This document shows, in pieces, positions 20,233 to 62,785 of a DNA stretch of 64,000 nucleotides (position 1 is the first letter of the stretch; every line of letters starts with the position of its first letter). Made by a program: the position numbers and the translations under genes. Source of the stretch: an uncultured Candidatus Saccharibacteria bacterium (GTDB lineage: Bacteria > Patescibacteriota > Minisyncoccia > Phycocordibacterales > GWA1-40-21); assembly GCA_964513515.1 (NCBI GenBank), contig CAZEMP010000003.1:40927-104926 (forward strand), written 5' to 3'. The notes under the pieces are model-generated. The model was not told the DNA's origin and searched no databases. It saw only the letters and a program-made list of their open reading frames with translations.

Positions 20233-20305
20233 TTGTCATTCCCGCGGAGGCGGGAATCTAGGTCGAATTAAATTAAACCTGGATCCCCGCGTTTGCGAGG
20301 ATGAC
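20233..20305. repeat. imperfect inverted-repeat element (copy A of palindromic element family)
   Basis: tgtcattcccgcggaggcgggaatctagg ... cctggatccccgcgtttgcgaggatgaca; arms each contain internal GC hairpin. Confidence 0.7.
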
Positions 20306-20336
20306 AATTCTAGAAATTACACACAAACGTATAAAT

Positions 20337-22721: not shown

Positions 22722-22788
22722 GTCTTTACGAGCAAAGCGAAGTAATCTAGGTTAATTTCTGGATTGCTTCGTTACACTCGCAATGACG
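22721..22788. repeat. imperfect inverted-repeat element (copy E), abutting thrS start codon
   Basis: tgtctttacgagcaaagcgaagtaatctagg ... ctggattgcttcgttacactcgcaatgacg. Confidence 0.7.
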
Positions 22789-22809
22789 TTATTCTTAATA
22801 AAATAAATA

Positions 22810-27024: not shown

Positions 27025-27047
27025 ACTTAATATTCTTGTGAAGTTCT

Positions 27048-27258
27048 TTTGTACAAAAAGGGGGTGATTGTCACGAAAGGCACAGAAAACTTACGGGAGC
27101 CATCACTACTTTGGATATTCGCTTTCATGGCCGTGGCTTTACCGATAGGTTGCTTTCTTTTGTTCTTGGGAAGCTTCGAGAACAAGAAAAGGCAAGAAGT
27201 ATCAGCTATGTCATAAAGCGAGAGGCGCTCCATTGTTGGAGCGCTTTCGTTTTAAATA
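27048..27258 (+). ncRNA. candidate structured noncoding RNA or highly structured rpmF leader (identity unresolved)
   Basis: GC-enriched about 200-nt segment starting GGGGGTGATTG with multiple hairpins and ending in gcgctccattgttggagcgc + T-run terminator; no credible CDS (only a 68-aa antisense ORF). Confidence 0.25.
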
Positions 27259-27321
27259 AAACAAAAGATGTGGGTTTTTAGGCTTTGCTTTTTTAATAAA
27301 ATAAGCTATACTCTTTTCACT

Positions 27322-32569: not shown

Positions 32570-32573
32570 CTTT

Positions 32574-32610
32574 GTGTCTTTGCGAGGAGTAGAGCGACGT
32601 GGCAATCCAG
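32574..32610. repeat. solo arm of palindromic element family
   Basis: tgtctttgcgaggagtagagcgacgtggcaatccagg matches left arms of copies C/E; no right arm. Confidence 0.55.
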
Positions 32611-32701
32611 GTTTAGTTTAATTGTTGAGTGGAGTCAATCTATTTTATAAAAATGAAATGGGCTCCACGTAAACAAACGCGGAGCCCATTTTCACTCGGT
32701 G

Positions 32702-32911
32702 TTAGAGCGAGTGTTCTTTCTTTGCCTCGTCGGTAAGGATCCAACCCTTTCTCCTCAAGGACTGAAGGAGCTTGCGATCCTCCGAAATGTGACCTTCAAG
32801 GACCATCACATTTTTCTTCGGGTTATATCCCTCAAGCTCACATTCGACCTTTCTCTCGAGTACAACGTACTCTTTGAGAAGTGACGCGAGCATTTTAGGA
32901 GTCAGCTTCAT
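32702..32911 (-). CDS. hypothetical 69-aa protein in GC-elevated patch (SD-dependent start)
   Basis: ATG (MKLTPKML) preceded by AAGGAG 6 nt upstream; ORF-track version starts at TTG 32974; local GC about 47% vs about 31% background; downstream hairpin 32653-32690. Confidence 0.45.
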   Translation of the reverse strand: MKLTPKMLASLLKEYVVLERKVECELEGYNPKKNVMVLEGHISEDRKLLQSLRRKGWILTDEAKKEHSL

Positions 32912-33122
32912 CTGGAACTCCTTTTTACATAGAATCGGAGTGGGAGCGTTTCCGTAGATTGCTTCTCCCAACAATCTAGCTTTTACGTTTATCTTTATGA
33001 TAAATCTCTCCTTGTTTAATCTGGCAAATTTTTCAAAACGAGAACGACTAAAACAAAGTTAGCATATCTGAAAGTACTATTCAAATATTCTCGTATTTCC
33101 TAATAAGCTAAAAAGCTACAAG

Positions 33123-36863: not shown

Positions 36864-38534
36864 ATGACTCAAAAAGATGCACTCGACATATTGAAGATGG
36901 GATACAACTGTTACATCACAGGTGCAGCAGGTTCTGGTAAAACACATCTACTAAATGAATATATAAAATTCCTTAAAAATAAAGGAGTTGAAGCCGGTAT
37001 TACAGCATCTACCGGTATTGCAGCGACTCATATGGGCGGTACGACTATTCATTCTTGGAGCGGGCTTGGTATTCGTGATGAGCTTACAGAATACGATCTT
37101 GAAGATCTAGAAAGTAAAAAATATCTCCATGATAGATTTAAAAATACCGATGTCCTCATCATAGACGAGGTTTCAATGCTCCATCATTTTCGTCTGGACT
37201 TAATAGAGAAAATCGCAAGACATTTAAAAAGGAACCAACTTCCGTTTGGTGGCATGCAAGTTATTCTTTGCGGAGATTTTTTCCAGCTTCCACCAGTATC
37301 AAGAATGGGCGAAAGAGAAGCACTTTTTTCTTATAAATCAGAAATTTGGAAAAATCTCAATTTGAAAATCTGTTATTTGGAGGAGCAATATAGACATAAG
37401 GATAATATTTTCATAAAAATTCTCAACGGCATACGCGGGAACAATATGAGTGAAGAATCTTTATCTCATCTAAGAGGAAGACATAATGCAAAATTAAAAG
37501 AAGGATTGGAACCAACAAAACTCCATACTCATAATATAAATGTTGATACTATAAACGATGGAGAATTAAACAGTCTTCCTGGTCAGATTTTTACATATCA
37601 GATGGAAGATAAAGGAAGAAAGGCCCTTGTAGATGCACTGAAAAAAAGCTGTCTTGCACCCGAATTATTGCGTTTAAAAGTTGGTGCAAGGGTGATGTTT
37701 GTTAAAAATAATTTTGATGGGGGCTATGCAAATGGAACTCTTGGAAAGATAATAGAATGTTCAAATTATGGCCCCAAAGTATTGCTTACTTCGGGGAAAA
37801 TAATTATTCCAGAAAAAGTCTCTTGGGTTATAGAAGAAGATGGAAAAGTAAAAGCCACTATCACTCAATATCCGCTTCGTTTGGCTTGGGCCATCACTGT
37901 ACATAAAAGCCAAGGAATGAGCTTAGATGCAGTTGAGGTAGATCTTTCAAAATCTTTTGAAAAGGGAATGGGTTACGTTGCTCTTTCTCGTGTAAGGACA
38001 CTAGACGGACTCAGACTTATCGGTATGAACAAGAACGCCTTAGAAGTGAGCGAAGATATTATGTTGTATGATGAGGATCTTAAAGAAATGTCTGATCAAG
38101 ACAAATCCTGGCTATATTCCATGTCTGATACTGAAATAAAGAAAAAACAAGAAGAGTTTTTGAAGAAAGTTGCACCGCCCGAAGGTACAAAAATTGATAA
38201 AAAGAAAAAAAGTAGAATTTCACCAATTGAGGAAACAAAAAATATGCTCAAGCAAGAAATGGGGCTAAAGGAAATGTTGGAAATAAAAGGTGTAAAAATT
38301 GGAACACTACTTGATCATATAGAGAAGATTATTGTAGATGAACCAGATTTTAATATTGCTCATTTGAAAAAGGAAGTGCCAACTGGAAAATATAAAAAAA
38401 TATGGATGGTATTTCGTGAACTTTATGGAGAGAATCGTGATTTTCTGCTTTCTCCAATAAAAAATAAGCTTGGATCAGCTTATACATATGAGGAGCTAAG
38501 AATTGTAAGACTTTTTGTGAAGAGAAATCTTTGA
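36864..38534 (+). CDS. Pif1/RecD-family ATP-dependent DNA helicase with C-terminal extension
   Basis: Walker A GAAGSGKTH, motif ILCGDFFQLPPV, LAWAITVHKSQGMSLD; about 120-aa uncharacterised C-terminal tail. Confidence 0.75.
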   Translation: MTQKDALDILKMGYNCYITGAAGSGKTHLLNEYIKFLKNKGVEAGITASTGIAATHMGGTTIHSWSGLGIRDELTEYDLEDLESKKYLHDRFKNTDVLIIDEVSMLHHFRLDLIEKIARHLKRNQLPFGGMQVILCGDFFQLPPVSRMGEREALFSYKSEIWKNLNLKICYLEEQYRHKDNIFIKILNGIRGNNMSEESLSHLRGRHNAKLKEGLEPTKLHTHNINVDTINDGELNSLPGQIFTYQMEDKGRKALVDALKKSCLAPELLRLKVGARVMFVKNNFDGGYANGTLGKIIECSNYGPKVLLTSGKIIIPEKVSWVIEEDGKVKATITQYPLRLAWAITVHKSQGMSLDAVEVDLSKSFEKGMGYVALSRVRTLDGLRLIGMNKNALEVSEDIMLYDEDLKEMSDQDKSWLYSMSDTEIKKKQEEFLKKVAPPEGTKIDKKKKSRISPIEETKNMLKQEMGLKEMLEIKGVKIGTLLDHIEKIIVDEPDFNIAHLKKEVPTGKYKKIWMVFRELYGENRDFLLSPIKNKLGSAYTYEELRIVRLFVKRNL

Positions 38535-38570
38535 AATTATCTGTTATAATATTCCTATATGGAACAAGTG
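38490..38570. repeat. about 80-bp unit U (3' end of Pif1 CDS + -10/leaderless start region), intact copy
   Basis: gagctaagaattgtaagactttttgtgaagagaaatctttgaaattatctgttataatattcctatatggaacaag; second split copy at 40484-40520 + 40956-40993. Confidence 0.7.
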
Positions 38571-40463
38571 AACGATAATTTAGATACACCTCAAACGTCT
38601 AAATTTATAAAGTGGTATTTATTAGCCTCAATTATATTTTCTTTTACACAAATAATTCTGAATCTCTTTTTTTATTATCATAAAGTTCCTAGTTTTTTAA
38701 TGATTTTATGGTACACAATAAATTTTATATGGTTAGTTTTTAATATAGTTACTATCACGATAATATTTGTAAAGAAATTTAAAAAGAAGTATCTTGTTGT
38801 TCCAATTCTATATTTCTTAGAAAATCTTATTATTCCAATTGCAGTGATTGTAGCTACTATATTATACATTAATTTTTTAGGCATTGTTGAGCTAACTAAT
38901 AATGAAACATTACTAATTGCTATCACAATTTCTTCAGTTTTTTATTTAGGAATGACAATACTATCATGTCTGTTTATTTTTACATTACAAAAAAATAGTT
39001 TATTGTTATGGATAATCGGAGGAGTTGCTTTAGTATCTGTGGTTACGATTATTTTCCCGGTAATAAAATATTTTTCAAAGGATATAAATCAAGAGAAAAA
39101 ATATATTCAAACATCGGTAGAGACTATAAAAAGATCTTTGGCTGGTCCATCTCCAACTAAAAAAGATTGGGCAATTTATACAAATTTAGATTATAAATTT
39201 TCTATCGAGTATCCATGGGAATATGAAGCAGAAAATTATTATCCAGGTGGTACTTATATGAGTACATATGAAATTAATACCATAGATCTACCCACATTGG
39301 ATCCAGATAAGAAAATTTACCTTACTTTAATGACTTTCAGTGATACAAGTGTAAATGATTACAAAAAAAATTGGGAATATGTTGGTGGCAAACCAGAGGA
39401 GCTTCGTTTTTATTATTCACTCCCAAAAATGCGAGAGGCAATCACTTTATCTTTAGGACAATCTTGCCAGGTATTAGATGAAAATAATATTCGTTATTCA
39501 GAAGCGCCAAGTCGTCCTTGTACGGTGACTTCGATAGATGGACAAGTAGCACTTCAGATTATGCCAGCCCCATATTCTATTGATACTTATATAACTTACT
39601 TTATTCCAAGGGAAGATTCGATGTGGTTAGAAATTCGTAAGATTCCAAGTAGTTACAGTGATGAAGTAATGAATACCCTAAAACTTGAATCATTAACAGC
39701 ATCTCAAAATGTACAACAGTTAATTCAGCCGGTTTTAGTAAAAGATTTACAAGAAGAAACTTTAAAACAATTGGGGTGGTCATGGTATGGCCCAACTCCT
39801 GTTTATGGTTCCATTTTAGATTGGGCTGATATAAACACTCTTGAAATATACAAAGGTACTCCGTATGTTAAAGATAAAAATGGAGTATATAGTTCATATT
39901 TTGGTGGAATATCAAGAATGGAAGGAGCTGATCCAAATACATTTATTGTTTATAGTTATGAACTTGCAAAAGACAAAAATCATATCTACATTACTGGAGT
40001 AACAGAATATCCTCAGGATCTAGATGTGCCAACATTTCAAAAAGTTGGTGCGAATTATTTTAAAGATAAAAACTTAGTTTATTTAGGAGATGTAATTTTT
40101 GAAAAAAAATACAACCAGTTATCACATTGGCGTCTAGAAAAAATTTTGGAATTACATGCACCAACTTTTCAATATTTGAATATTTGTGGTTGTGTTGAAA
40201 AATCTTGTACTTTTTACACTAAAGATAAACAAGGTGTGTATTGTGGTTATGATAATAATTTTGAAAAAATTCAAGGAGCAGATTCTTCGACCTTTGAGTA
40301 TGTCGAATCATATTCTCCAGGTGAAATGTTAAATTCTGGTATCGCAAAGGATAAATTTTGTGTATATAACGGTGGCGAAAAAGTTGTTGATGCAAATAAT
40401 GTATGTATAAATCCTAGTACCTGTACAAGTGATAATTTGGTCGCCGGCTGTGGATTAAAATAA
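38559..40463 (+). CDS. polytopic membrane protein with C-terminal DKNYY-type repeats
   Basis: About 6 N-terminal TM helices; repeats DKNGVYSSYFGG / KDKNHIYITG / KDKNLVYLGD / KDKQGVYCGYD / KDKFCVYNGG resemble DKNYY family repeats. Confidence 0.55.
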   Translation: MEQVNDNLDTPQTSKFIKWYLLASIIFSFTQIILNLFFYYHKVPSFLMILWYTINFIWLVFNIVTITIIFVKKFKKKYLVVPILYFLENLIIPIAVIVATILYINFLGIVELTNNETLLIAITISSVFYLGMTILSCLFIFTLQKNSLLLWIIGGVALVSVVTIIFPVIKYFSKDINQEKKYIQTSVETIKRSLAGPSPTKKDWAIYTNLDYKFSIEYPWEYEAENYYPGGTYMSTYEINTIDLPTLDPDKKIYLTLMTFSDTSVNDYKKNWEYVGGKPEELRFYYSLPKMREAITLSLGQSCQVLDENNIRYSEAPSRPCTVTSIDGQVALQIMPAPYSIDTYITYFIPREDSMWLEIRKIPSSYSDEVMNTLKLESLTASQNVQQLIQPVLVKDLQEETLKQLGWSWYGPTPVYGSILDWADINTLEIYKGTPYVKDKNGVYSSYFGGISRMEGADPNTFIVYSYELAKDKNHIYITGVTEYPQDLDVPTFQKVGANYFKDKNLVYLGDVIFEKKYNQLSHWRLEKILELHAPTFQYLNICGCVEKSCTFYTKDKQGVYCGYDNNFEKIQGADSSTFEYVESYSPGEMLNSGIAKDKFCVYNGGEKVVDANNVCINPSTCTSDNLVAGCGLK

Positions 40464-40483
40464 ATTATTACTGTCACCTCTTA

Positions 40484-40520
40484 AGAGTTGAGAATTGTAA
40501 GACTTTTTGTGAAGAGGAAT
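40484..40520. repeat. copy 2a of unit U (duplicate of Pif1 3' end, noncoding here)
   Basis: gagttgagaattgtaagactttttgtgaagaggaat: 33/36 identity to 38494-38529. Confidence 0.7.
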
Positions 40521-40601
40521 TTATAATTAAATAAAAAGAGACCCGCCGTCTGCTCATAGTCGTAGATATTTTCCTTGACTAGATAGCGCGGCGGGCCTTT
40601 T

Positions 40602-40871
40602 TTACTTTTTTGAGAACAGGAGGATGTCGGCATATTCGCCTTTTTTCTCCTCCGATTTCGGGCAGTCATGCCAGAAACCGGCATGTTTATATCCCAAAGG
40701 TGCTTCATCGGGACCAGGGCTCTCCACATTGTTAAGGCATCTTGCTGTTCTCGTGACAAACGTCCGGTGGCCTTTTGAGATCAGCGTTTTGATCTTGGCC
40801 AACATCGCTCTTGCCTTGGCGGGGCTTTTGGGAAACTGCACTCCAACCAAGATGCTCTCTGACTCAGACAT
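40602..40871 (-). CDS. hypothetical 90-aa protein in GC-rich insert (SD-dependent)
   Basis: AAGGAGG 6 nt upstream of ATG (MSESESIL...); local GC >50%; large GC hairpin 40541-40596 adjacent. Confidence 0.45.
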   Translation of the reverse strand: MSESESILVGVQFPKSPAKARAMLAKIKTLISKGHRTFVTRTARCLNNVESPGPDEAPLGYKHAGFWHDCPKSEEKKGEYADILLFSKK

Positions 40872-40955
40872 ATACACCTCCTTGAGTTCTTTAAAAATAC
40901 TACTTTATTACTAAACTTTTGTCTATCGAATGATTTTTTATAATTTCTTATATAA

Positions 40956-40993
40956 CAAATCTTTTGCTATAATACTCTAATATGGAACAAGAA
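40956..40993. repeat. copy 2b of unit U (promoter/start region, now serving xfp)
   Basis: aaatcttttgctataatactctaatatggaacaag vs aaatctttga...tataatattcctatatggaacaag. Confidence 0.65.
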
Positions 40994-43330
40994 TTGGAGA
41001 ATATTAAAAAGTATGTTCGCGCAGCGAACTATCTTTCTGTTGGTCAGATCTATTTACAAAATAATTTTCTATTAAAGGACAAATTAAAATTTGATGACAT
41101 CAAGACTAGACTTTTAGGACATTGGGGAACATGTCCAGGTGTTAATTTTACATATGGCTGTTTAAACAATTTGATCATAAAAACAAATGCAAATATGATG
41201 TTTGTGCTCGGTCCAGGTCATGGTTTTCCTGCGATACAGTCAAACGTATTTTTAGAAGGAACTCTCAGTAAATATTATAAAGAAGCAGAGAAGAATGAAT
41301 CTGGTATAGCTTATATTACAAAGAATTTTAGCTGGCCTTATGGTTTTCCTAGCCACTCTAGTCCGGCAACCCCCGGGGTTATTCTTGAGGGAGGAGAGCT
41401 AGGATACTCACTTTCTACTTCATACGGAGCAGTTTTGGACAATCCAGACCTTATTGTAGCATGTCTTGTTGGTGATGGTGAAGCAGAGACAGCGGCTCTT
41501 GCTACATCATGGCATTTGAATAAATTTATTGATCCAGCAAAAAACGGTGTCGTACTTCCTATACTTCATTTAAATGGATACAAAATTTCTGGGCCAACTA
41601 TCTTTGGAAGAATGAAAAATTCAGATCTCAAATCTTTATTTAAAGGTTATGGTTACGAGCCCATTATTGTGGAAGGACATTCTGATAAAGTGTATGAGAA
41701 AATGGTAAAGGCACTAGACGAAGCCTATGCATCAATAAAAGCAATTCAAAAAGAGGCAAGAGAGAATCCGGATAAGCCACGAGAAGATTATTACAGATTT
41801 CCAATGATTGTTTTAAAAACTCCTAAAGGTTGGACCGGTATTAAGAGTTTGAAGGATGAAAAAATCGAGGGGAACTTTTTGTCTCATCAGGTTGTGGGTA
41901 AAGAAATGAAAACTGACAAAACTGAATTGAAAGCTTTGAATAAATGGATGAGATCTTATAAGTTTGATGAACTTTTTGATTCAACAAATGGTTTTATAAA
42001 AGATATTGAAGATAACATTCCAAAAGAAGGTTATAGAATGGGAGACAATCAAGTTGCATTTGGTATTAAAAAAGGGGATCGCTCTCGAGATTTAAATTTA
42101 CCAAAACCAGAAGACTTTGAGACAAAAGTCGGAGATACTGCTGGCTCAATGTACAAAATCGGCGCATATTTTGCAGAGGTAGTAAAATTAAATCAAGAAA
42201 AAAGAAACTTTAGATTATTCTCACCAGACGAGACATATTCAAATCGTCTTCAAGATATGTTTAAGTACACAACTCGTGCATTCACAGGAAAACTTGAGTC
42301 ATGGGATAAAGATATGTCACGTGATGGAAGAGTGATAGAAATGCTTTCTGAAAATTCATTACAAGGACTTGCACAAGGTTATGTCATAACTGGACGATAT
42401 GGTGTCTTTGCTTCATATGAATCTTTTCTTGAAATAGTTTCTAGTATGACCGAGCAATATAGCAAGTTTTTAAAAACAGCCAGAAAGACAGAGTGGCGCG
42501 GAGACATACCATCTCTCAATTATATTGTGTCTTCAACTGGATGGAGACAGGAACATAATGGATTCTCACATCAAAATCCAGGTTTTATAGACGGCTTATT
42601 GCAAAAAAATAATGATTTTACGAATGTATATTTTCCAGCCGATGCAAATGAGGCAGTTCTTATAGCTGAAAAATGTTTGTCTTCCAAGAACGAAATAAAT
42701 GTAATTGTTGCGGAGAAAACCTTTGAACCAACATGGCTTACAATGCAAGAAGCAAAATTGGAAGTTGAAAACGGTTTATCTGTTTGGAAGTTTGCATCTG
42801 ACGAGAATCCTGACATTGTAATCGCTGGTTGTGGGCAATATTTAACTAAGGAAGCTCTAGCCGCAGTTCAATTATTAAAAGAGGAAGTTGATAATGCAAA
42901 AATACGATTTATAAATATTGTAGAGCTTTCTCCAAACAGTGTTGGACATTCAAAGCGGATTACTCAATCAGAGTTTGAAAAATATTTTACAAAAGATAAA
43001 CCGGTTATATTTAATTTTCATGGATACCCAGAAACTTTAAAACAAATAATTTTTGATTACCAAAATGCCTTAGGAAGGATTTCTGTATTTGGATATATGG
43101 AAAGTGGATCAACTACGACACCACTTGATCTTCATATAAGAAATAAGACAGATAGATATAGTTTGCTTATAGAAGCAGTAGAAAAACTATCAAAAAGTGG
43201 AGTAGTGGCTCAGGATAAGGCCTTGAAAATAGTAGAGAAGTATAAGCATAAAATAAAAGATCATAAAGATTATATTATGAGAGTGGGGGATGATCCAGAA
43301 GAAATTTTGAATTGGAAATGGAAGAAGTAG
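40982..43330 (+). CDS. xfp: xylulose-5-phosphate/fructose-6-phosphate phosphoketolase
   Basis: LLGHWGTCPGVNFTYGCLN signature, TPP-binding regions, 782 aa. Confidence 0.9.
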   Translation: MEQELENIKKYVRAANYLSVGQIYLQNNFLLKDKLKFDDIKTRLLGHWGTCPGVNFTYGCLNNLIIKTNANMMFVLGPGHGFPAIQSNVFLEGTLSKYYKEAEKNESGIAYITKNFSWPYGFPSHSSPATPGVILEGGELGYSLSTSYGAVLDNPDLIVACLVGDGEAETAALATSWHLNKFIDPAKNGVVLPILHLNGYKISGPTIFGRMKNSDLKSLFKGYGYEPIIVEGHSDKVYEKMVKALDEAYASIKAIQKEARENPDKPREDYYRFPMIVLKTPKGWTGIKSLKDEKIEGNFLSHQVVGKEMKTDKTELKALNKWMRSYKFDELFDSTNGFIKDIEDNIPKEGYRMGDNQVAFGIKKGDRSRDLNLPKPEDFETKVGDTAGSMYKIGAYFAEVVKLNQEKRNFRLFSPDETYSNRLQDMFKYTTRAFTGKLESWDKDMSRDGRVIEMLSENSLQGLAQGYVITGRYGVFASYESFLEIVSSMTEQYSKFLKTARKTEWRGDIPSLNYIVSSTGWRQEHNGFSHQNPGFIDGLLQKNNDFTNVYFPADANEAVLIAEKCLSSKNEINVIVAEKTFEPTWLTMQEAKLEVENGLSVWKFASDENPDIVIAGCGQYLTKEALAAVQLLKEEVDNAKIRFINIVELSPNSVGHSKRITQSEFEKYFTKDKPVIFNFHGYPETLKQIIFDYQNALGRISVFGYMESGSTTTPLDLHIRNKTDRYSLLIEAVEKLSKSGVVAQDKALKIVEKYKHKIKDHKDYIMRVGDDPEEILNWKWKK

Positions 43331-43350
43331 TAAAAAGTTTTGTCTAAAAT

Positions 43351-44532
43351 ATGAATAAATACTTAATTGTAAATACAGGCTCTGTTTCTGCAAAATACGC
43401 AATATATTCTGAAAAATCAGAGTTATTTTTTGGACACTTTGAAATAGAAGTTGGTAAAGCAATAGCTACTTTTTATAAAGATGGAGATAAATCAAAATCG
43501 GAAACTATAAGTATAAGTGATCAAATATTTAAAAATTCTTTAGAATTTTTTATTGATGAAGCTATAAAAAATAATATTATAAAAAGTAAGAATGATATTT
43601 TTTCTATAGGTATTAGAATAGTTTCTCCAGGAACTTATTTTCAATCTGATAGAATTATTGATACTTCTTTTATATTGAAAATAACGAAAGAAAAAGATGA
43701 AGCGCCACGCCATATACCAGGTACTTTAAGAGAAATAGGCGAGATAAGAAAAATTTTTAAAGTGACCCCTATTATCGGTATATCAGATAGTGCTTTTCAT
43801 AATAATGTTCCAGATTTTGTTAAACACTATGCAATACCAAAGAAAATAGCAAAAGACTTGGACATATATCATTTTGGATATCACGGTATTTCAATAAGGT
43901 CCATCATTAAGAAATTATCAAGTAAAAAGAAACTTCCTAAAAGGATAGTCGTCTGTCATCTCGGTGGTGGTTTGAGTGTAGTTGCAGTTCGAGACGGTAA
44001 AACTTTTGATACATCAATGGGATATTCGCCTCTTGAGGGTCTTGTAATGTCCACTCGCGTAGGAAATATAGATCCAGTTGCCGTTATACATCTTGGACAA
44101 AAATTAGGTAAAAATAATAAAGAGTTAGAAGCATATTTTAACAATGAATGTGGACTTTTAGGGCTTTCTGGAAAAAGTTCTGATGTTCGAGATCTGATAG
44201 AGCTTGAAAAAGATGGGCATGAGGATTCCAGGCTTGCGCTTGAGAAATTTGTAATGAGTATTAAAAAATATATTGGTTCATATATTGCAGAAATGGGCGG
44301 TATAGATACTTTAGTATTTTCCGGAACGATAGGGGAAAGATCATTTATTATGCGAGATAGGATTTGTGATGGTTTGGAATCATTGGGAATCAAGATAAAC
44401 AAAAGAGTAAATAATAAAACAGTTGGTATTGATAGGAAAATAAGCACTTTGTTCTCAAAAGTTGAAGTTTTAGTTGTTTGTACAGAAGAGATGAAGGATA
44501 TGGCAGAAAGATTAAATCAGTTTAAAGTATAA
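43351..44532 (+). CDS. ackA: acetate kinase
   Basis: MNKYLIVNTGSVSAKYAIY N-terminus; VVCHLGGGLSVVAVRDGK; ASKHA fold; follows xfp. Confidence 0.9.
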   Translation: MNKYLIVNTGSVSAKYAIYSEKSELFFGHFEIEVGKAIATFYKDGDKSKSETISISDQIFKNSLEFFIDEAIKNNIIKSKNDIFSIGIRIVSPGTYFQSDRIIDTSFILKITKEKDEAPRHIPGTLREIGEIRKIFKVTPIIGISDSAFHNNVPDFVKHYAIPKKIAKDLDIYHFGYHGISIRSIIKKLSSKKKLPKRIVVCHLGGGLSVVAVRDGKTFDTSMGYSPLEGLVMSTRVGNIDPVAVIHLGQKLGKNNKELEAYFNNECGLLGLSGKSSDVRDLIELEKDGHEDSRLALEKFVMSIKKYIGSYIAEMGGIDTLVFSGTIGERSFIMRDRICDGLESLGIKINKRVNNKTVGIDRKISTLFSKVEVLVVCTEEMKDMAERLNQFKV

Positions 44533-54219: not shown

Positions 54220-54247
54220 TGTTGTTTGAAAGGAGGTTGAACAAAAG

Positions 54248-55063
54248 ATGTCCAATAAGTCCCCGCCGAAGAAAGAAGTGTTTGGGGGTTACTTGAAAGA
54301 GTGCCTCCAGCATTTCACTAACTGTTTCAATTCACAGATAGTGAAAGGGTCAAAAAAAGCAAATATGACCAGGAGACCTATAGCTGACTTCTGTGGTGTA
54401 AAAACCTCGGCAGTAGCCACATGGTTCAGGTCTCAAAATCCACCTGTTGGGGAAGTGCTCATTAAGTTGATGTGCTATCTCGACATGATTGGATACCGAG
54501 TGATGGAGTTGGAAAAACTCGGTCGTGGTCATATGATCAGGCGGAATTTCATGGAGCTAGTTGGCTTCGGAATTCTGTCTGGTCCGAAGGCTGCTGAGCT
54601 TATCGGTAAGGTCTCTGCCCCGGGTTTGTATCAAGTATTTTGGGGTAGAGAGGGCCTTAGCGGTCAGAAGCAGCAGTTGATGTGGGACATTTGGAAAGTA
54701 CATCGGGAGGTGTTAGAGAAAAAAAAGGAAGAGTCGTGGCGATTGTATCGTCCCAGATTTTCTCTGAGGGCTATTCCCAAAGAAAAAAAATCTGGGCAAC
54801 AGGTGTTGACTTCTAAAGCTGCTGTTATACCACCTAATGGTGAAAAAACAGCAGTACCTGTTGGGCCGATCTTTCGCCAGAAAGCGGCGGTCAACATCAT
54901 GGAAGGATTATTGTGCTTGTTCAGGGAGGGTATGTTTGAAAACCTCTCGGAAAGTGAGCTCAAGATCCTGAAAGAGTCACCAGCCATGAAGACGTTCTTT
55001 GACCTTTCAGCTCGTTTGGGCTTGTTATGCTCAAAGCTGGATCGGCGGTTGGTGAAACGTTGA
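54248..55063 (+). CDS. XRE-type helix-turn-helix protein with uncharacterised C-terminal domain (GC-rich island ORF A)
   Basis: AAAGGAGG SD; HTH RRPIADFCGVKTSAVATWFRSQNPPVGEVLIKL; about 48-50% GC. Confidence 0.5.
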   Translation: MSNKSPPKKEVFGGYLKECLQHFTNCFNSQIVKGSKKANMTRRPIADFCGVKTSAVATWFRSQNPPVGEVLIKLMCYLDMIGYRVMELEKLGRGHMIRRNFMELVGFGILSGPKAAELIGKVSAPGLYQVFWGREGLSGQKQQLMWDIWKVHREVLEKKKEESWRLYRPRFSLRAIPKEKKSGQQVLTSKAAVIPPNGEKTAVPVGPIFRQKAAVNIMEGLLCLFREGMFENLSESELKILKESPAMKTFFDLSARLGLLCSKLDRRLVKR

Positions 55064-55368
55064 TGATGATCGAGGAGGTCAGTGGAAAGACCATGCCAAG
55101 TAACGAGAGTTATGAAGCAATGGTTGAAAAGGTTATACCGGAAGGTCCTCACGGACCATACGGTGTTGCCCGATCGGAAAAATTGGACGGATCAATTACT
55201 TTCTCGCTAAACAAACCAGTTTGGCAAGAAATTTATCCGCCCGATTCTGGGACAATAGTGATATTGTCTCAAATCCGAAAGAAACGTGCTGGTTGGCGTG
55301 CCAACTATGCACGCTTCGTGACGCCCGATGATGTAACGAAAAGTAAGCTTGGAGGATGGTACAAATAA
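55063..55368 (+). CDS. hypothetical protein (island ORF B), translationally coupled to ORF A
   Basis: ATG overlaps ORF A stop (TGATG); alternative SD-led start MPSNESYE; ORF-track start 55027. Confidence 0.4.
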   Translation: MMIEEVSGKTMPSNESYEAMVEKVIPEGPHGPYGVARSEKLDGSITFSLNKPVWQEIYPPDSGTIVILSQIRKKRAGWRANYARFVTPDDVTKSKLGGWYK

Positions 55369-55447
55369 GTAAAACGTGATGGATGATTTATCAACCAGTC
55401 ATGTTTATGAACATCAACCAGAAGTTTAAGGAGCAAGGAGAAACAGC

Positions 55448-56224
55448 ATGAAGATCGTGAAAGTGCAGTTGAAGGATCTGAAGACGAACCTGTTCGTTCG
55501 ACAGGCGCTCAACCAAGACCACGCGCTTCGTCTGGCCGAGCTGATCGATGCGGGGGTGAAGCTCCCGCCGATCTTGATCACGGATCAGAGGGTCGTCATC
55601 GACGGCCGCCATCGCATCGAGGGGTACGATCTCAACAAGGTCCTCGAAGTCGAGGCCGAGGTCATCCACGTCGACAGCCAGGCCGACATGATCGCGAGGG
55701 CCTTCCTGGCCAACGTCGGAGGCGCGCTGCCGCCGACGAAGGAGGACTTGGAGCACACGGTGAAGACCATGCTCGAGCTCGGCGAGAGCAAGAAGAGCAT
55801 CGCGGAACGGCTGAAGCTCCCGATGGGCTTGGCTCGGAAGTACGTCAATTCCGTGCAGGCACGCATGATGCACGCGAAAAACGAGCGGGCCATCTCGGCC
55901 GTCTTGAACGGCGGGATGAGCGTGGCCAAGGCCGTGGAGTTGCACGGGGCGGACATGGCCGCGGTGAAGCACAAGCTCGGCGGCGGTCGCAAGCCGAAAA
56001 AGGGCATCCAGGAGATGCACCGGGCGCTCACCCAGACCCAGAAGTCCTTCGGTTCGAAGAATGCCGCGCTCTTGCGCAGCCTTCTCGAGAAGTACGAGGA
56101 CGGTGAGGTCTCGGCCAAGCAGGTCCAGGAGATCATCGAGCACCTCGAAGACCTCCAGCGCGGGCAGGCCCGCAACCTGGCCGACTGGAAGAAGCGGTTC
56201 AACGGGCTGTTCAAGAAAGCCTAG
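55448..56224 (+). CDS. ParB-like nuclease (ParB/Srx N-domain) + HTH protein (island ORF C)
   Basis: LPPILITDQRVVIDGRHRIEG ParB-box-like; HTH SIAERLKLPMGLARKYV; about 63% GC; AAGGAG SD. Confidence 0.6.
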   Translation: MKIVKVQLKDLKTNLFVRQALNQDHALRLAELIDAGVKLPPILITDQRVVIDGRHRIEGYDLNKVLEVEAEVIHVDSQADMIARAFLANVGGALPPTKEDLEHTVKTMLELGESKKSIAERLKLPMGLARKYVNSVQARMMHAKNERAISAVLNGGMSVAKAVELHGADMAAVKHKLGGGRKPKKGIQEMHRALTQTQKSFGSKNAALLRSLLEKYEDGEVSAKQVQEIIEHLEDLQRGQARNLADWKKRFNGLFKKA

Positions 56225-56241
56225 TTCAACCACTGAAATAC

Positions 56242-56283
56242 AAATGCCCCGGACGCGCTTGCGCGTCCGGGGCATTCTTTTTA
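56242..56283 (+). terminator. GC-rich hairpin terminator ending the island
   Basis: aaatgccccggacgcgc-tt-gcgcgtccggggcattt + ctttttta. Confidence 0.8.
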
Positions 56284-56490
56284 TACTTTATTTTTATAAA
56301 AATTCACAACCATTTGACAAAAATGACTTTATTTGCTACTATCAATAAGTAAATAAATCTCACTTAGAGATTATCTCACTGATTAAGCGTAAGAACACAT
56401 GTCGCCGAATCCGTGCGACATTTTTACATTTAATAATACAACCTATTTTAAATAGGTCTAATAAATCTTTAGTTACAAAATTTCTAGTAT

Positions 56491-56562
56491 TGTCATCCTC
56501 GCGGATGCGGGGATCCAGAATTAATATAATCTGGATTGCCACGCTTTGCTCGCAATGACACA
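56491..56562. repeat. imperfect inverted-repeat element (copy B, hybrid arms)
   Basis: tgtcatcctcgcggatgcggggatccag ... ctggattgccacgctttgctcgcaatgacaca. Confidence 0.7.
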
Positions 56563-58364: not shown

Positions 58365-58399
58365 AACTTGGTAAGATGTATGAATTACATAAAGTTGAA

Positions 58400-58476
58400 T
58401 GTCTTTGCGAGTATAACGAAGCAATCCAGGCTAATTAAACCTTACTCTGGATTGCCACGCTACGCTCGCAAAGACG
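58400..58476. repeat. imperfect inverted-repeat element (copy C)
   Basis: tgtctttgcgagtataacgaagcaatccagg ... ctggattgccacgctacgctcgcaaagacg. Confidence 0.7.
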
Positions 58477-59280: not shown

Positions 59281-59307
59281 GGGCCCCACACACGTGTGTG
59301 GGGCCCC
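59281..59307. terminator. perfect GC palindrome hairpin
   Basis: gggccccacacac-gtgtgtggggccc. Confidence 0.6.
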
Positions 59308-59431
59308 GCAAGCAAAAGAGAGGCTAGGTTCTTATTCTGTCTCAAGCCGTCACATAGTGACGGGAGAGCCAATTACCCCTTTATGGAACAACTGTGTTCC
59401 AACCTATTCTTTGCTTGCTGTGCGAATGAAC

Positions 59432-59695
59432 TTACTTCTTTTGCTTCTTGAGCTCCGCGAGCTTCGCCTCGATCATCGCGAAGTGCTCCTGCGTGAGCTC
59501 CTTCATGATTTCGAGATAGATCTCGAGGATCTCGATCTTGTTTAGGGGAGAACTCAACTTGTGTCTGTCGTTGAACCCTTTCTCCTCCTGACCCAAGCCA
59601 CGGAGTAGGTCGTTGCGATCGAAATGCAGACCTTTGTCCCTCAGCTTGTCTTTGATGAACGCACGATACAGCTCATTTTGTCTTGCCGGGTCCAT
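59432..59695 (-). CDS. hypothetical 87-aa helical protein in GC-elevated patch (SD-dependent)
   Basis: AAGGAGG SD 4-5 nt upstream of ATG (MDPARQNELYRAF...); ORF-track start 59788 extends into AT-rich DNA; patch GC about 52%. Confidence 0.45.
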   Translation of the reverse strand: MDPARQNELYRAFIKDKLRDKGLHFDRNDLLRGLGQEEKGFNDRHKLSSPLNKIEILEIYLEIMKELTQEHFAMIEAKLAELKKQKK

Positions 59696-59810
59696 GAACC
59701 CTCCTTGCAACACAGAGTATGGTATTTTTACGAAACACCACATTCTGTTCCAAACTGAATTATACCACTTATTATAATAAGTGGTCAATAGAAATAAAAA
59801 TCCCTATTAA

Positions 59811-62708: not shown

Positions 62709-62785
62709 TGTGTCATTCCCGTGAAGACGGGAATCTAGGTTGTGTTGAATTAATTCTGGTTTCCCACCTGCGCGAGAATGACACA
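62709..62785. repeat. imperfect inverted-repeat element (copy D)
   Basis: tgtgtcattcccgtgaagacgggaatctagg ... ctggtttcccacctgcgcgagaatgacaca. Confidence 0.7.

Follow-up and report, generated by a model that had tools for sequence, protein, structure and literature searches.

The locus and its features

We have analyzed a 64,000-nucleotide (nt) stretch of contig CAZEMP010000003.1, hereafter the window, from a Patescibacterium of low guanine plus cytosine content (GC; mean 0.338 over the window). Our subject is a small GC-rich cassette carrying a single open reading frame (ORF) on the minus strand, ORF89, which lies between a gene for a DKNYY protein and the phosphoketolase gene xfp. Genes for a Pif1-like helicase and acetate kinase are also neighbors. 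The closest relatives of the window genes (phosphoketolase, acetate kinase, Pif1-like helicase and others) come from metagenome-assembled genomes labelled Paceibacteria, Minisyncoccia, Patescibacteria and similar. The features of the locus are listed below in window coordinates, with protein lengths in amino acids (aa).

38484 to 38568, plus strand: unit U, copy 1, intact; the last 15 helicase codons, TATAAT and ATGGAACAAG; drives the 634-aa DKNYY gene
38559 to 40463, plus strand: 634-aa membrane/DKNYY-domain gene between the two copies of U (Pfam DKNYY, E = 1.3e-14)
40476 to 40526, plus strand: unit U, copy 2, left half; a non-coding remnant of the Pif1-like helicase 3′ end, 84% identical to 38484 to 38528
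40527 to 40949, no strand: the whole insertion, about 423 base pairs (bp), relative to the ancestral helicase–xfp junction of locus L026
40534 to 40603, no strand: bidirectional intrinsic terminator hairpin, a CCCGCCG/CGGCGGG stem between an A-run and a T-run
40602 to 40871, minus strand: ORF89, coding for 89 aa and a stop; belongs to a rare orphan family (from translation, phmmer, alignments and GC at third codon positions)
40877 to 40883, minus strand: Shine-Dalgarno (SD) sequence AAGGAGG, followed by TGTAT and the ATG, a spacer of 5 nt
40897 to 40925, minus strand: candidate sigma-70-type promoter of ORF89 (TAGACA, 17-nt spacer, TAGTAT), from a consensus scan only
40957 to 40991, plus strand: unit U, copy 2, right half; the xfp promoter (−10 TATAAT at 40968 to 40973) and start ATGGAACAAG
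40982 to 43330, plus strand: xfp, with XFP_N, XFP and XFP_C domains, the divergent neighbor of ORF89

A first-pass annotation, made from the letters alone, had described a foreign cassette of about 350 bp splitting the second copy of U. The split is confirmed by the two halves of copy 2, and the foreign cassette is supported by the junction in L026, by codon usage, by the SD and by the lack of a homologue in 25 related loci. Several dimensions required correction. The insertion is real and measures about 423 bp from the L026 junction. The translation of the ORF was exactly as written, and has 89 residues from the ATG in place of the 90 stated (91 if read from an upstream GTG). The AAGGAGG is where it was said to be, with a spacer of 5 nt, not 6. 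The GC hairpin with its T-run was correctly recognized on one side of the ORF; it extends over 40534 to 40603 and acts in both directions, serving the convergent 634-aa gene as well.

The cassette interrupts the helicase–xfp junction

We fetched 25 related loci using the phosphoketolase, their xfp genes being 74 to 87% identical. In nine of them the same Pif1-like helicase lies directly upstream of xfp, with 84 to 96% identity where it can be compared (L024 is a short fragment). The distance from the end of the helicase to xfp in these nine ranges from 25 to 1391 bp. The shortest is that of L026, where 25 bp separate the helicase stop from the xfp start in the order ...AAGAGAAATTTATAA-AATTGTTTGG-TATAAT-ATCTGTAT-ATG. 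This uninterrupted junction aligns to 40483 to 40526 and 40950 to 41040 of the window; the placement of 8 nt (ATTTATAA) at its edges is ambiguous. On the right, where the sequence is AT-rich, the position of the edge could shift by tens of bases. The insert is larger than its GC-rich core (40541 to 40883) since it takes in the AT-rich part that bears the candidate promoter.

The other eight syntenic relatives hold 174 to 1391 bp of unrelated cargo at this spot, for example a 197-aa membrane protein, a 97-aa helix-turn-helix (HTH)-like protein and proteins of about 190 aa that are rich in repeats. None of the 25 loci has a homologue of ORF89 at a distance of up to 6 kb from xfp. The helicase–xfp site is a hot spot of gain and loss. 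One type of cargo recurs: a 190-aa protein of GDVSxI(x)GD-type repeats lies upstream of xfp in both L010 (849 to 2240) and L027 (5327 to 6001).

The composition changes abruptly at both edges of the GC-rich segment, as would be expected if reads of a higher-GC organism had been joined into the contig, a concern that the first-pass annotation had raised. However, two contigs from independent European Nucleotide Archive (ENA) metagenome assemblies (ERZ27284378 and ERZ27284376) are 100% identical to the window across both junctions: one of 5172 bp (L001) matches 38472 to 43643 and one of 1372 bp (L002) matches 39941 to 41312. Each runs across both edges of the segment into native genes on either side, and the 89-aa protein is called on both. 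Moreover, the edges of the insert coincide with the halves of a recognizable ancestral junction. An assembly chimera is therefore extremely improbable.

The right half of copy 2 is 80% identical to 38533 to 38567 of copy 1 and homologous to the regions upstream of xfp in the relatives. The left half translates as TS*ELRIVRLFVKRNL*, compared with TYEELRIVRLFVKRNL* at the real end of the helicase. Over the last 14 helicase codons the two copies of U differ at six nucleotides, and all six differences are synonymous. Copy 2 therefore appears to have diverged while it was still coding, and the sequences suggest that it derives from the helicase allele of another lineage through recombination, rather than from duplication in place followed by drift. 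A Campbell-type integration of a circle possibly lies behind the duplicated junction. The 634-aa gene between the copies is compositionally native (codon-usage z = +0.4) and absent from the loci of the relatives; it has taken the promoter and the first three codons (MEQ) of xfp.

ORF89 has a foreign composition

The cassette had been described as exceeding 50% GC against a background near 30%, and this holds: in 100-nt windows between 40650 and 40850 the GC is 0.51 to 0.54, against the mean of 0.338. We compared ORF89 with a reference of 50 native genes and 1374 native 90-codon windows. Its overall GC is 0.496 and its GC at third codon positions (GC3) is 0.578, against 0.229 ± 0.027 for the native genes (n = 50, maximum 0.283), corresponding to z = 13. 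Among the native 90-codon windows GC3 reaches 0.40 at most. Since GC1 and GC2 of ORF89 do not leave the native range, its GC excess sits at synonymous sites. The synonymous codon log-likelihood of ORF89 gives z = −11.4 relative to the native genes.

Expression signals of the cassette

No SD-like motif is present in the 22 nt preceding the start in 61 of the 65 ORFs of the window, and of the compositionally native genes just one (35206) shows so much as AGGA. The strong SDs all precede GC-rich ORFs, in the cassettes at 32.7, 40.6, 54.2 to 56.2 and 59.4 kb. Many native genes instead have TATAAT placed 8 to 15 nt before the ATG (e.g. 8810, 11239, 36864, 38559, 40982, 47979, 50003 and 62831). This placement suggests that leaderless mRNAs, or mRNAs with a very short leader, may be the normal substrate for translation initiation here. 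The SD of ORF89 is thus of a kind that its native neighbors do not have.

The hairpin lies directly after the stop codon of ORF89, and 71 nt after that of the convergent 634-aa gene. Folding yields a Delta-G of −31.7 kcal/mol for the plus and −33.1 kcal/mol for the minus strand (z = −5.6 and −6.2 respectively), and none of 200 shuffled sequences folds as well. On the plus strand the stem is followed by CUUUUUU and on the minus strand by CUCUUUUU. Flanked by an A-run and, opposite, a T-run, the hairpin can therefore be read as an intrinsic terminator on either strand. A simple terminator scanner missed it, as both loop and stem exceed the limits of the scanner.

ORF89 belongs to a very rare protein family

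We searched for homologues of ORF89 in about 15 billion proteins overall. A word-indexed search of 5.8 billion clusters retrieved only the ORF89 protein itself, while phmmer, run exhaustively on 1.84 billion representatives, detected nine further proteins of 81 to 174 aa that align end to end with 36 to 50% identity (E = 3.8e-18 to 2.5e-4). Two profile searches extended the family to about 21 clusters, all of them unnamed or annotated as hypothetical and none with a Pfam domain. The alignment of the family is characterized by the motifs V.FPK.P, G[YH]..F.T.T..CLN.VESP.PD, G[WY], F.HDC and Y.DI.LF, and every invariant and near-invariant residue is present in ORF89. Two family members can be compared at the level of codons. 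Those of loci L028 and L036 share 79 identical residues over 95 codons, and their nucleotide differences number 9, 9 and 51 at codon positions 1, 2 and 3 respectively. Differences dominated by the third position indicate purifying selection on the protein. Conservation of the ORF, on which the first-pass annotation had left a doubt, is thus evident both from the homologues and from the pattern of substitution, and ORF89 does encode a protein, one whose family is very rare.

GC-rich islands in AT-rich genomes are often RNA genes, and the 376-nt segment taken as a whole has a fold z of about −3.8 on either strand. It might therefore be a structured non-coding RNA, or a cis-regulatory RNA for xfp, with the ORF a by-product of GC richness. 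Yet the fold signal is due to the terminator hairpin, and the ORF region alone has z = −1.5. Searching Rfam gave no match at the gathering score, or at E ≤ 10 apart from one noise hit, and ARAGORN found nothing at the GC-rich insert. Together with the conservation of amino acids and the third-position-dominated change in the homologues, these results leave the RNA explanation close to refuted.

The family member P0018 (130 aa; L043, 6576 to 6968) has lost the normal C-terminus, has SGC in place of the HDC motif and continues as a tail of unrelated sequence; the copy is probably decaying. The N-terminal extension of P0003 was considered as a fused ribbon-helix-helix domain, and this was rejected. 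It resembles a partial repeat of the N-terminal motif of the family itself and finds no backing in Pfam.

Genomic setting of the family

The genomic context could be read for eleven members of the family. They sit among housekeeping genes, and within these contexts we found no neighbor conserved across the family, either as an operon partner or as a toxin–antitoxin-like pairing. Eight of the eleven have an SD-like motif, whereas the neighboring genes mostly lack one, and the sequences show downstream hairpins resembling a terminator that belongs to each member. Four loci, L028, L029, L036 and L043, form a clade of intermediate GC with a common neighborhood: RNase Y, prephenate dehydratase, HU, variable genes, the family gene, a LAGLIDADG-like ORF and a trypsin-like protease. 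P0018 lies within this clade. The GC3 of the family gene in these loci is 0.55 to 0.58 (0.45 in L036), like that of the core genes, and the gene is therefore resident there. In contrast, it stands out in three low-GC hosts, with GC3 of 0.58 against 0.23 in the window, 0.46 against 0.24 in L038 and 0.62 against 0.33 in L039.

Some details of individual loci may be added. In L028 and L036 the gene and its terminator are kept as a block (78% identity), with divergent sequence on either side, and a separate conserved element of about 70 nt lies directly upstream in L036 and about 1.4 kb away in L028. Two members adjoin tRNA genes: in L036 a tRNA-Gly (755 to 826) directly follows the terminator, and in L042 a tRNA-Glu (117 to 189) lies about 300 nt upstream.

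The main rival to a foreign origin is that ORF89 is a native gene of an old Patescibacterial family, whose higher GC and SD selection has maintained (for instance to allow strong or regulated translation from the SD in genomes that otherwise initiate without one) and whose patchy occurrence reflects frequent loss. The family gene is richer in GC than the rest of its locus in six of the seven loci compared, where host GC ranges from 0.34 to 0.56; eight of eleven members are SD-led among neighbors that are not; and the conserved synteny of the one clade speaks of vertical inheritance. Yet in that clade the GC3 of the family gene equals that of RNase Y and of the trypsin-like gene, so that no particular surplus of GC has to be invoked there. 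In the window it is synonymous sites that carry the excess, with GC1 and GC2 remaining native. The family is missing from the loci of the 25 relatives and, beyond about 21 clusters, from the protein collection, and three unrelated ORFs in the same window bear the same foreign signature. We therefore regard a native origin as unlikely.

Repeated transfer from moderate-GC into low-GC lineages is the simplest reading of the distribution. The high-GC donor suggested by the first-pass annotation did not come to light; by its composition the family seems at home in lineages of intermediate GC (GC3 0.5 to 0.58), and the donor need not be of high GC. According to PMC12455944, most individual gene transfers detected in Patescibacteria run between Patescibacteria, a pattern that transfer from moderate- to low-GC lineages would fit.

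The protein product

Searches with ORF89 and its family returned nothing below E = 0.04 in Pfam, NCBIfam, PHROGs or PADLOC, and a profile search of the PDB with the family gave a best E of 0.11. AlphaFold2 predicted the structure of ORF89 from 17 sequences with a predicted local distance difference test score (pLDDT) of 71. The family member P0011, with 20 sequences, gave a more confident model (pLDDT 87.5, predicted template-modeling score 0.77) with the order beta-alpha-beta-beta-alpha-beta. Foldseek, the comparison put forward in the first-pass annotation, yielded no match for the P0011 model in the PDB (best E = 0.21, template-modeling (TM) score ≤ 0.35), nor for the ORF89 model in BFVD (best E = 0.17). 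A confidently predicted fold that lacks a PDB match makes the family a possible target for structural and functional study.

ORF89 is computed to be soluble (grand average of hydropathy −0.5) and basic (isoelectric point 9.4). The conserved positions include Cys45, Asn47, Asp55, Asp69 and Asp82, with His68 and Cys70 present in most members. Most plausibly the product is a non-essential accessory factor, and our guess would be a small protein that binds a ligand, a metal or nucleic acid.

Origin of the cassette

From an insertion of foreign composition whose coding nature, SD and terminator are established, we conclude that the cassette is quite probably a horizontally acquired, self-contained, moron-like single-gene unit within the hypervariable helicase–xfp spot. 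Transcription would start at its own promoter, within a 110-bp divergent region that is common to ORF89 and xfp. Translation would use the canonical AAGGAGG SD, a signal that the native genes here lack, and transcription would end at the strong bidirectional hairpin, which would also terminate the convergent 634-aa gene. The predicted product is a soluble, basic, 89-aa alpha/beta protein. The donor was probably a moderate-GC Patescibacterium, with entry likely by recombination at the hot spot.

A number of points weigh against this conclusion. The candidate promoter matches the consensus at 9 of 12 positions, and one such site compares with 2.5 expected in shuffled sequences. Expression of ORF89 has to be presumed in a host that otherwise makes no use of SDs. 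Most family members are richer in GC than their surroundings and have an SD-like motif, and both could be traits of the family rather than marks of recent transfer. We found neither a donor nor a near-identical copy, the closest homologue being 50% identical. At the insert there is no clear target-site duplication, just an AT-only direct repeat of 8 to 9 nt that could be due to chance, and no recombinase, integrase-like ORF or mobile-element gene adjoins it. Neither ORF89 nor its family has a match in IMG/VR, in INPHARED phages or PLSDB plasmids (both by tblastn) or in PHROGs.

The last of the database results bears equally on a further possibility, that the cassette is left over from a phage or plasmid, as a true moron or as a fragment of a mobile element that once integrated at the hot spot. 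The moron-like architecture would be explained in this way, and an island elsewhere in the window, at 54.2 to 56.3 kb, encodes a phage-type ParB-like protein (phrog_1033, E = 4.6e-8) and a weakly HTH-like protein. However, in addition to the lack of viral and plasmid matches, there are no att-like repeats and no adjoining integrase or mobile-element genes, and family members are located among housekeeping genes. We consider such an origin improbable.

Comparison with known systems

The cassette resembles an integron gene cassette in that a single small ORF precedes an imperfect palindrome of some 60 nt, at a site whose cargo varies between strains. Integron cassettes are usually promoterless, and their attC sites contain the core sequences RYYYAAC and GTTRRRY. 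Unlike these, the ORF89 cassette has a candidate promoter region of its own, and its palindrome is flanked by an A-run and a T-run, without attC core sites. Moreover there is neither an integrase nor an attI site. A miniature inverted-repeat transposable element (MITE) or an insertion sequence was also considered and rejected: no terminal inverted repeats link the ends of the insert, and there is no clear target-site duplication.

The likeness to phage morons is closer. In PMC3594210, morons are independent transcription units that are inserted between two prophage genes and spread by horizontal transfer. The cassette similarly has one small ORF with a promoter-like site, an SD and a factor-independent terminator, and it sits between genes that are adjacent in relatives and has a composition unlike its flanks. 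It differs from a moron as presented there in that it is not in a phage or prophage; its neighbors are chromosomal housekeeping and metabolic genes, and it has no viral homologues or known role in lysogenic conversion. With the genomic islets and single transferred genes of Patescibacteria (PMC12455944) it has in common that its composition is atypical, that relatives lack it, that it lies in a variable region and that its source is likely Patescibacterial. Yet it is far smaller than the islands that tools predict, and it is a single ORFan with complete portable signals that differ from the SD-less starts of its host. As a protein, ORF89 is like the ORFans and FESNov-type families (PMC10849945) in being conserved, under purifying selection, known from metagenomes only and devoid of a Pfam domain, but its family is extremely rare, with about 21 clusters among some 15 billion proteins.

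The cassette is best classed among individually transferred genes, or genomic islets, at a hot spot of the chromosome. The kind of event, ordinary horizontal gene transfer of a small ORFan into a variable intergenic site, is already well known. Its interest lies in the setting. The helicase–xfp spot is mapped precisely here in reduced genomes, and its duplicated junction may record recombination with the allele of another lineage. SD-led imports among SD-less native genes also raise the question of whether such genes are translated here, and whether they are favored or handicapped.

A more far-reaching proposal would be that ORF89 is the first member to be noticed of a structurally new family of small proteins, one that passes between Patescibacteria as a plug-in unit complete for expression, deliberately keeping a canonical SD in SD-less genomes. 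We hold this to be a distinctly long shot. If true, the gene would probe naturally, or might even regulate, SD-dependent translation in bacteria that lack SDs. In logic it would then be comparable to rpsU (bS21) of Bacteroidia, a gene that is SD-led and autoregulated.

Other GC-rich cassettes in the window

The first-pass annotation had counted four similar small foreign cassettes in the window. The similarity holds for their architecture and fails for common descent, as we found no similarity among the four at the DNA or protein level. Moreover, the pair at 54 to 56 kb belongs to a larger island. The principal ORFs other than ORF89 are as follows.

32702 to 32911, minus strand: 69-aa ORF; GC3 0.59, codon z −10.0, SD AAGGAG
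54248 to 55063, plus strand: 271-aa ORF; GC3 0.51, codon z −10.0, SD AAGGAGG, weak HTH_3 match
55448 to 56224, plus strand: 258-aa ParB-like ORF; GC3 0.90, codon z −21.2, SD AAGGAG, phrog_1033 match noted above
59432 to 59695, minus strand: 87-aa ORF; GC3 0.74, codon z −14.5, SD AAGGAGG

In the cassette at 32640 to 32960 (minus strand) a terminator lies after the 69-aa ORF, in the form of a perfect GC hairpin of 15 bp (−27 kcal/mol, z = −6.8); the protein has no match in Pfam or PHROGs. The cassette at 59285 to 59710 (minus strand) has about 100 nt of untranslated GC-rich sequence after the 87-aa ORF and then a GGGGCCCCACACACGTGTGTGGGGCCC hairpin, and no family match was obtained for its protein. 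The island at 54230 to 56350 also holds a 113-aa ORF. Its ParB-like protein has a phage-type match, and neither this nor the HTH protein has close relatives in IMG/VR. With GC3 of 0.90, the ParB-like gene points to a donor of far higher GC than that of ORF89. The lack of mutual similarity and the widely differing GC3 of the GC-rich ORFs together suggest several donors.

GC-rich palindromic repeats occur between genes at 20234 to 20306, 62711 to 62783 and 56479 to 56530, at 22759 to 22809 and 58379 to 58429, and at about 32570 to 32607. They are of the TGTCATTCCCGCGGAGGCGGGAATC... and CTGGATTGCTTCG...GCAATGAC types, and look like repetitive extragenic palindromic (REP) or MITE-type elements. 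Some adjoin the foreign islands. The intergenic region between the RNase HII and L32 genes (27030 to 27260) has a GC of about 0.47 and no Rfam match even at E ≤ 1. It contains a 68-aa ORF on the minus strand (GC3 0.49) that is probably spurious, and this GC-enriched stretch could be an undescribed RNA or leader.

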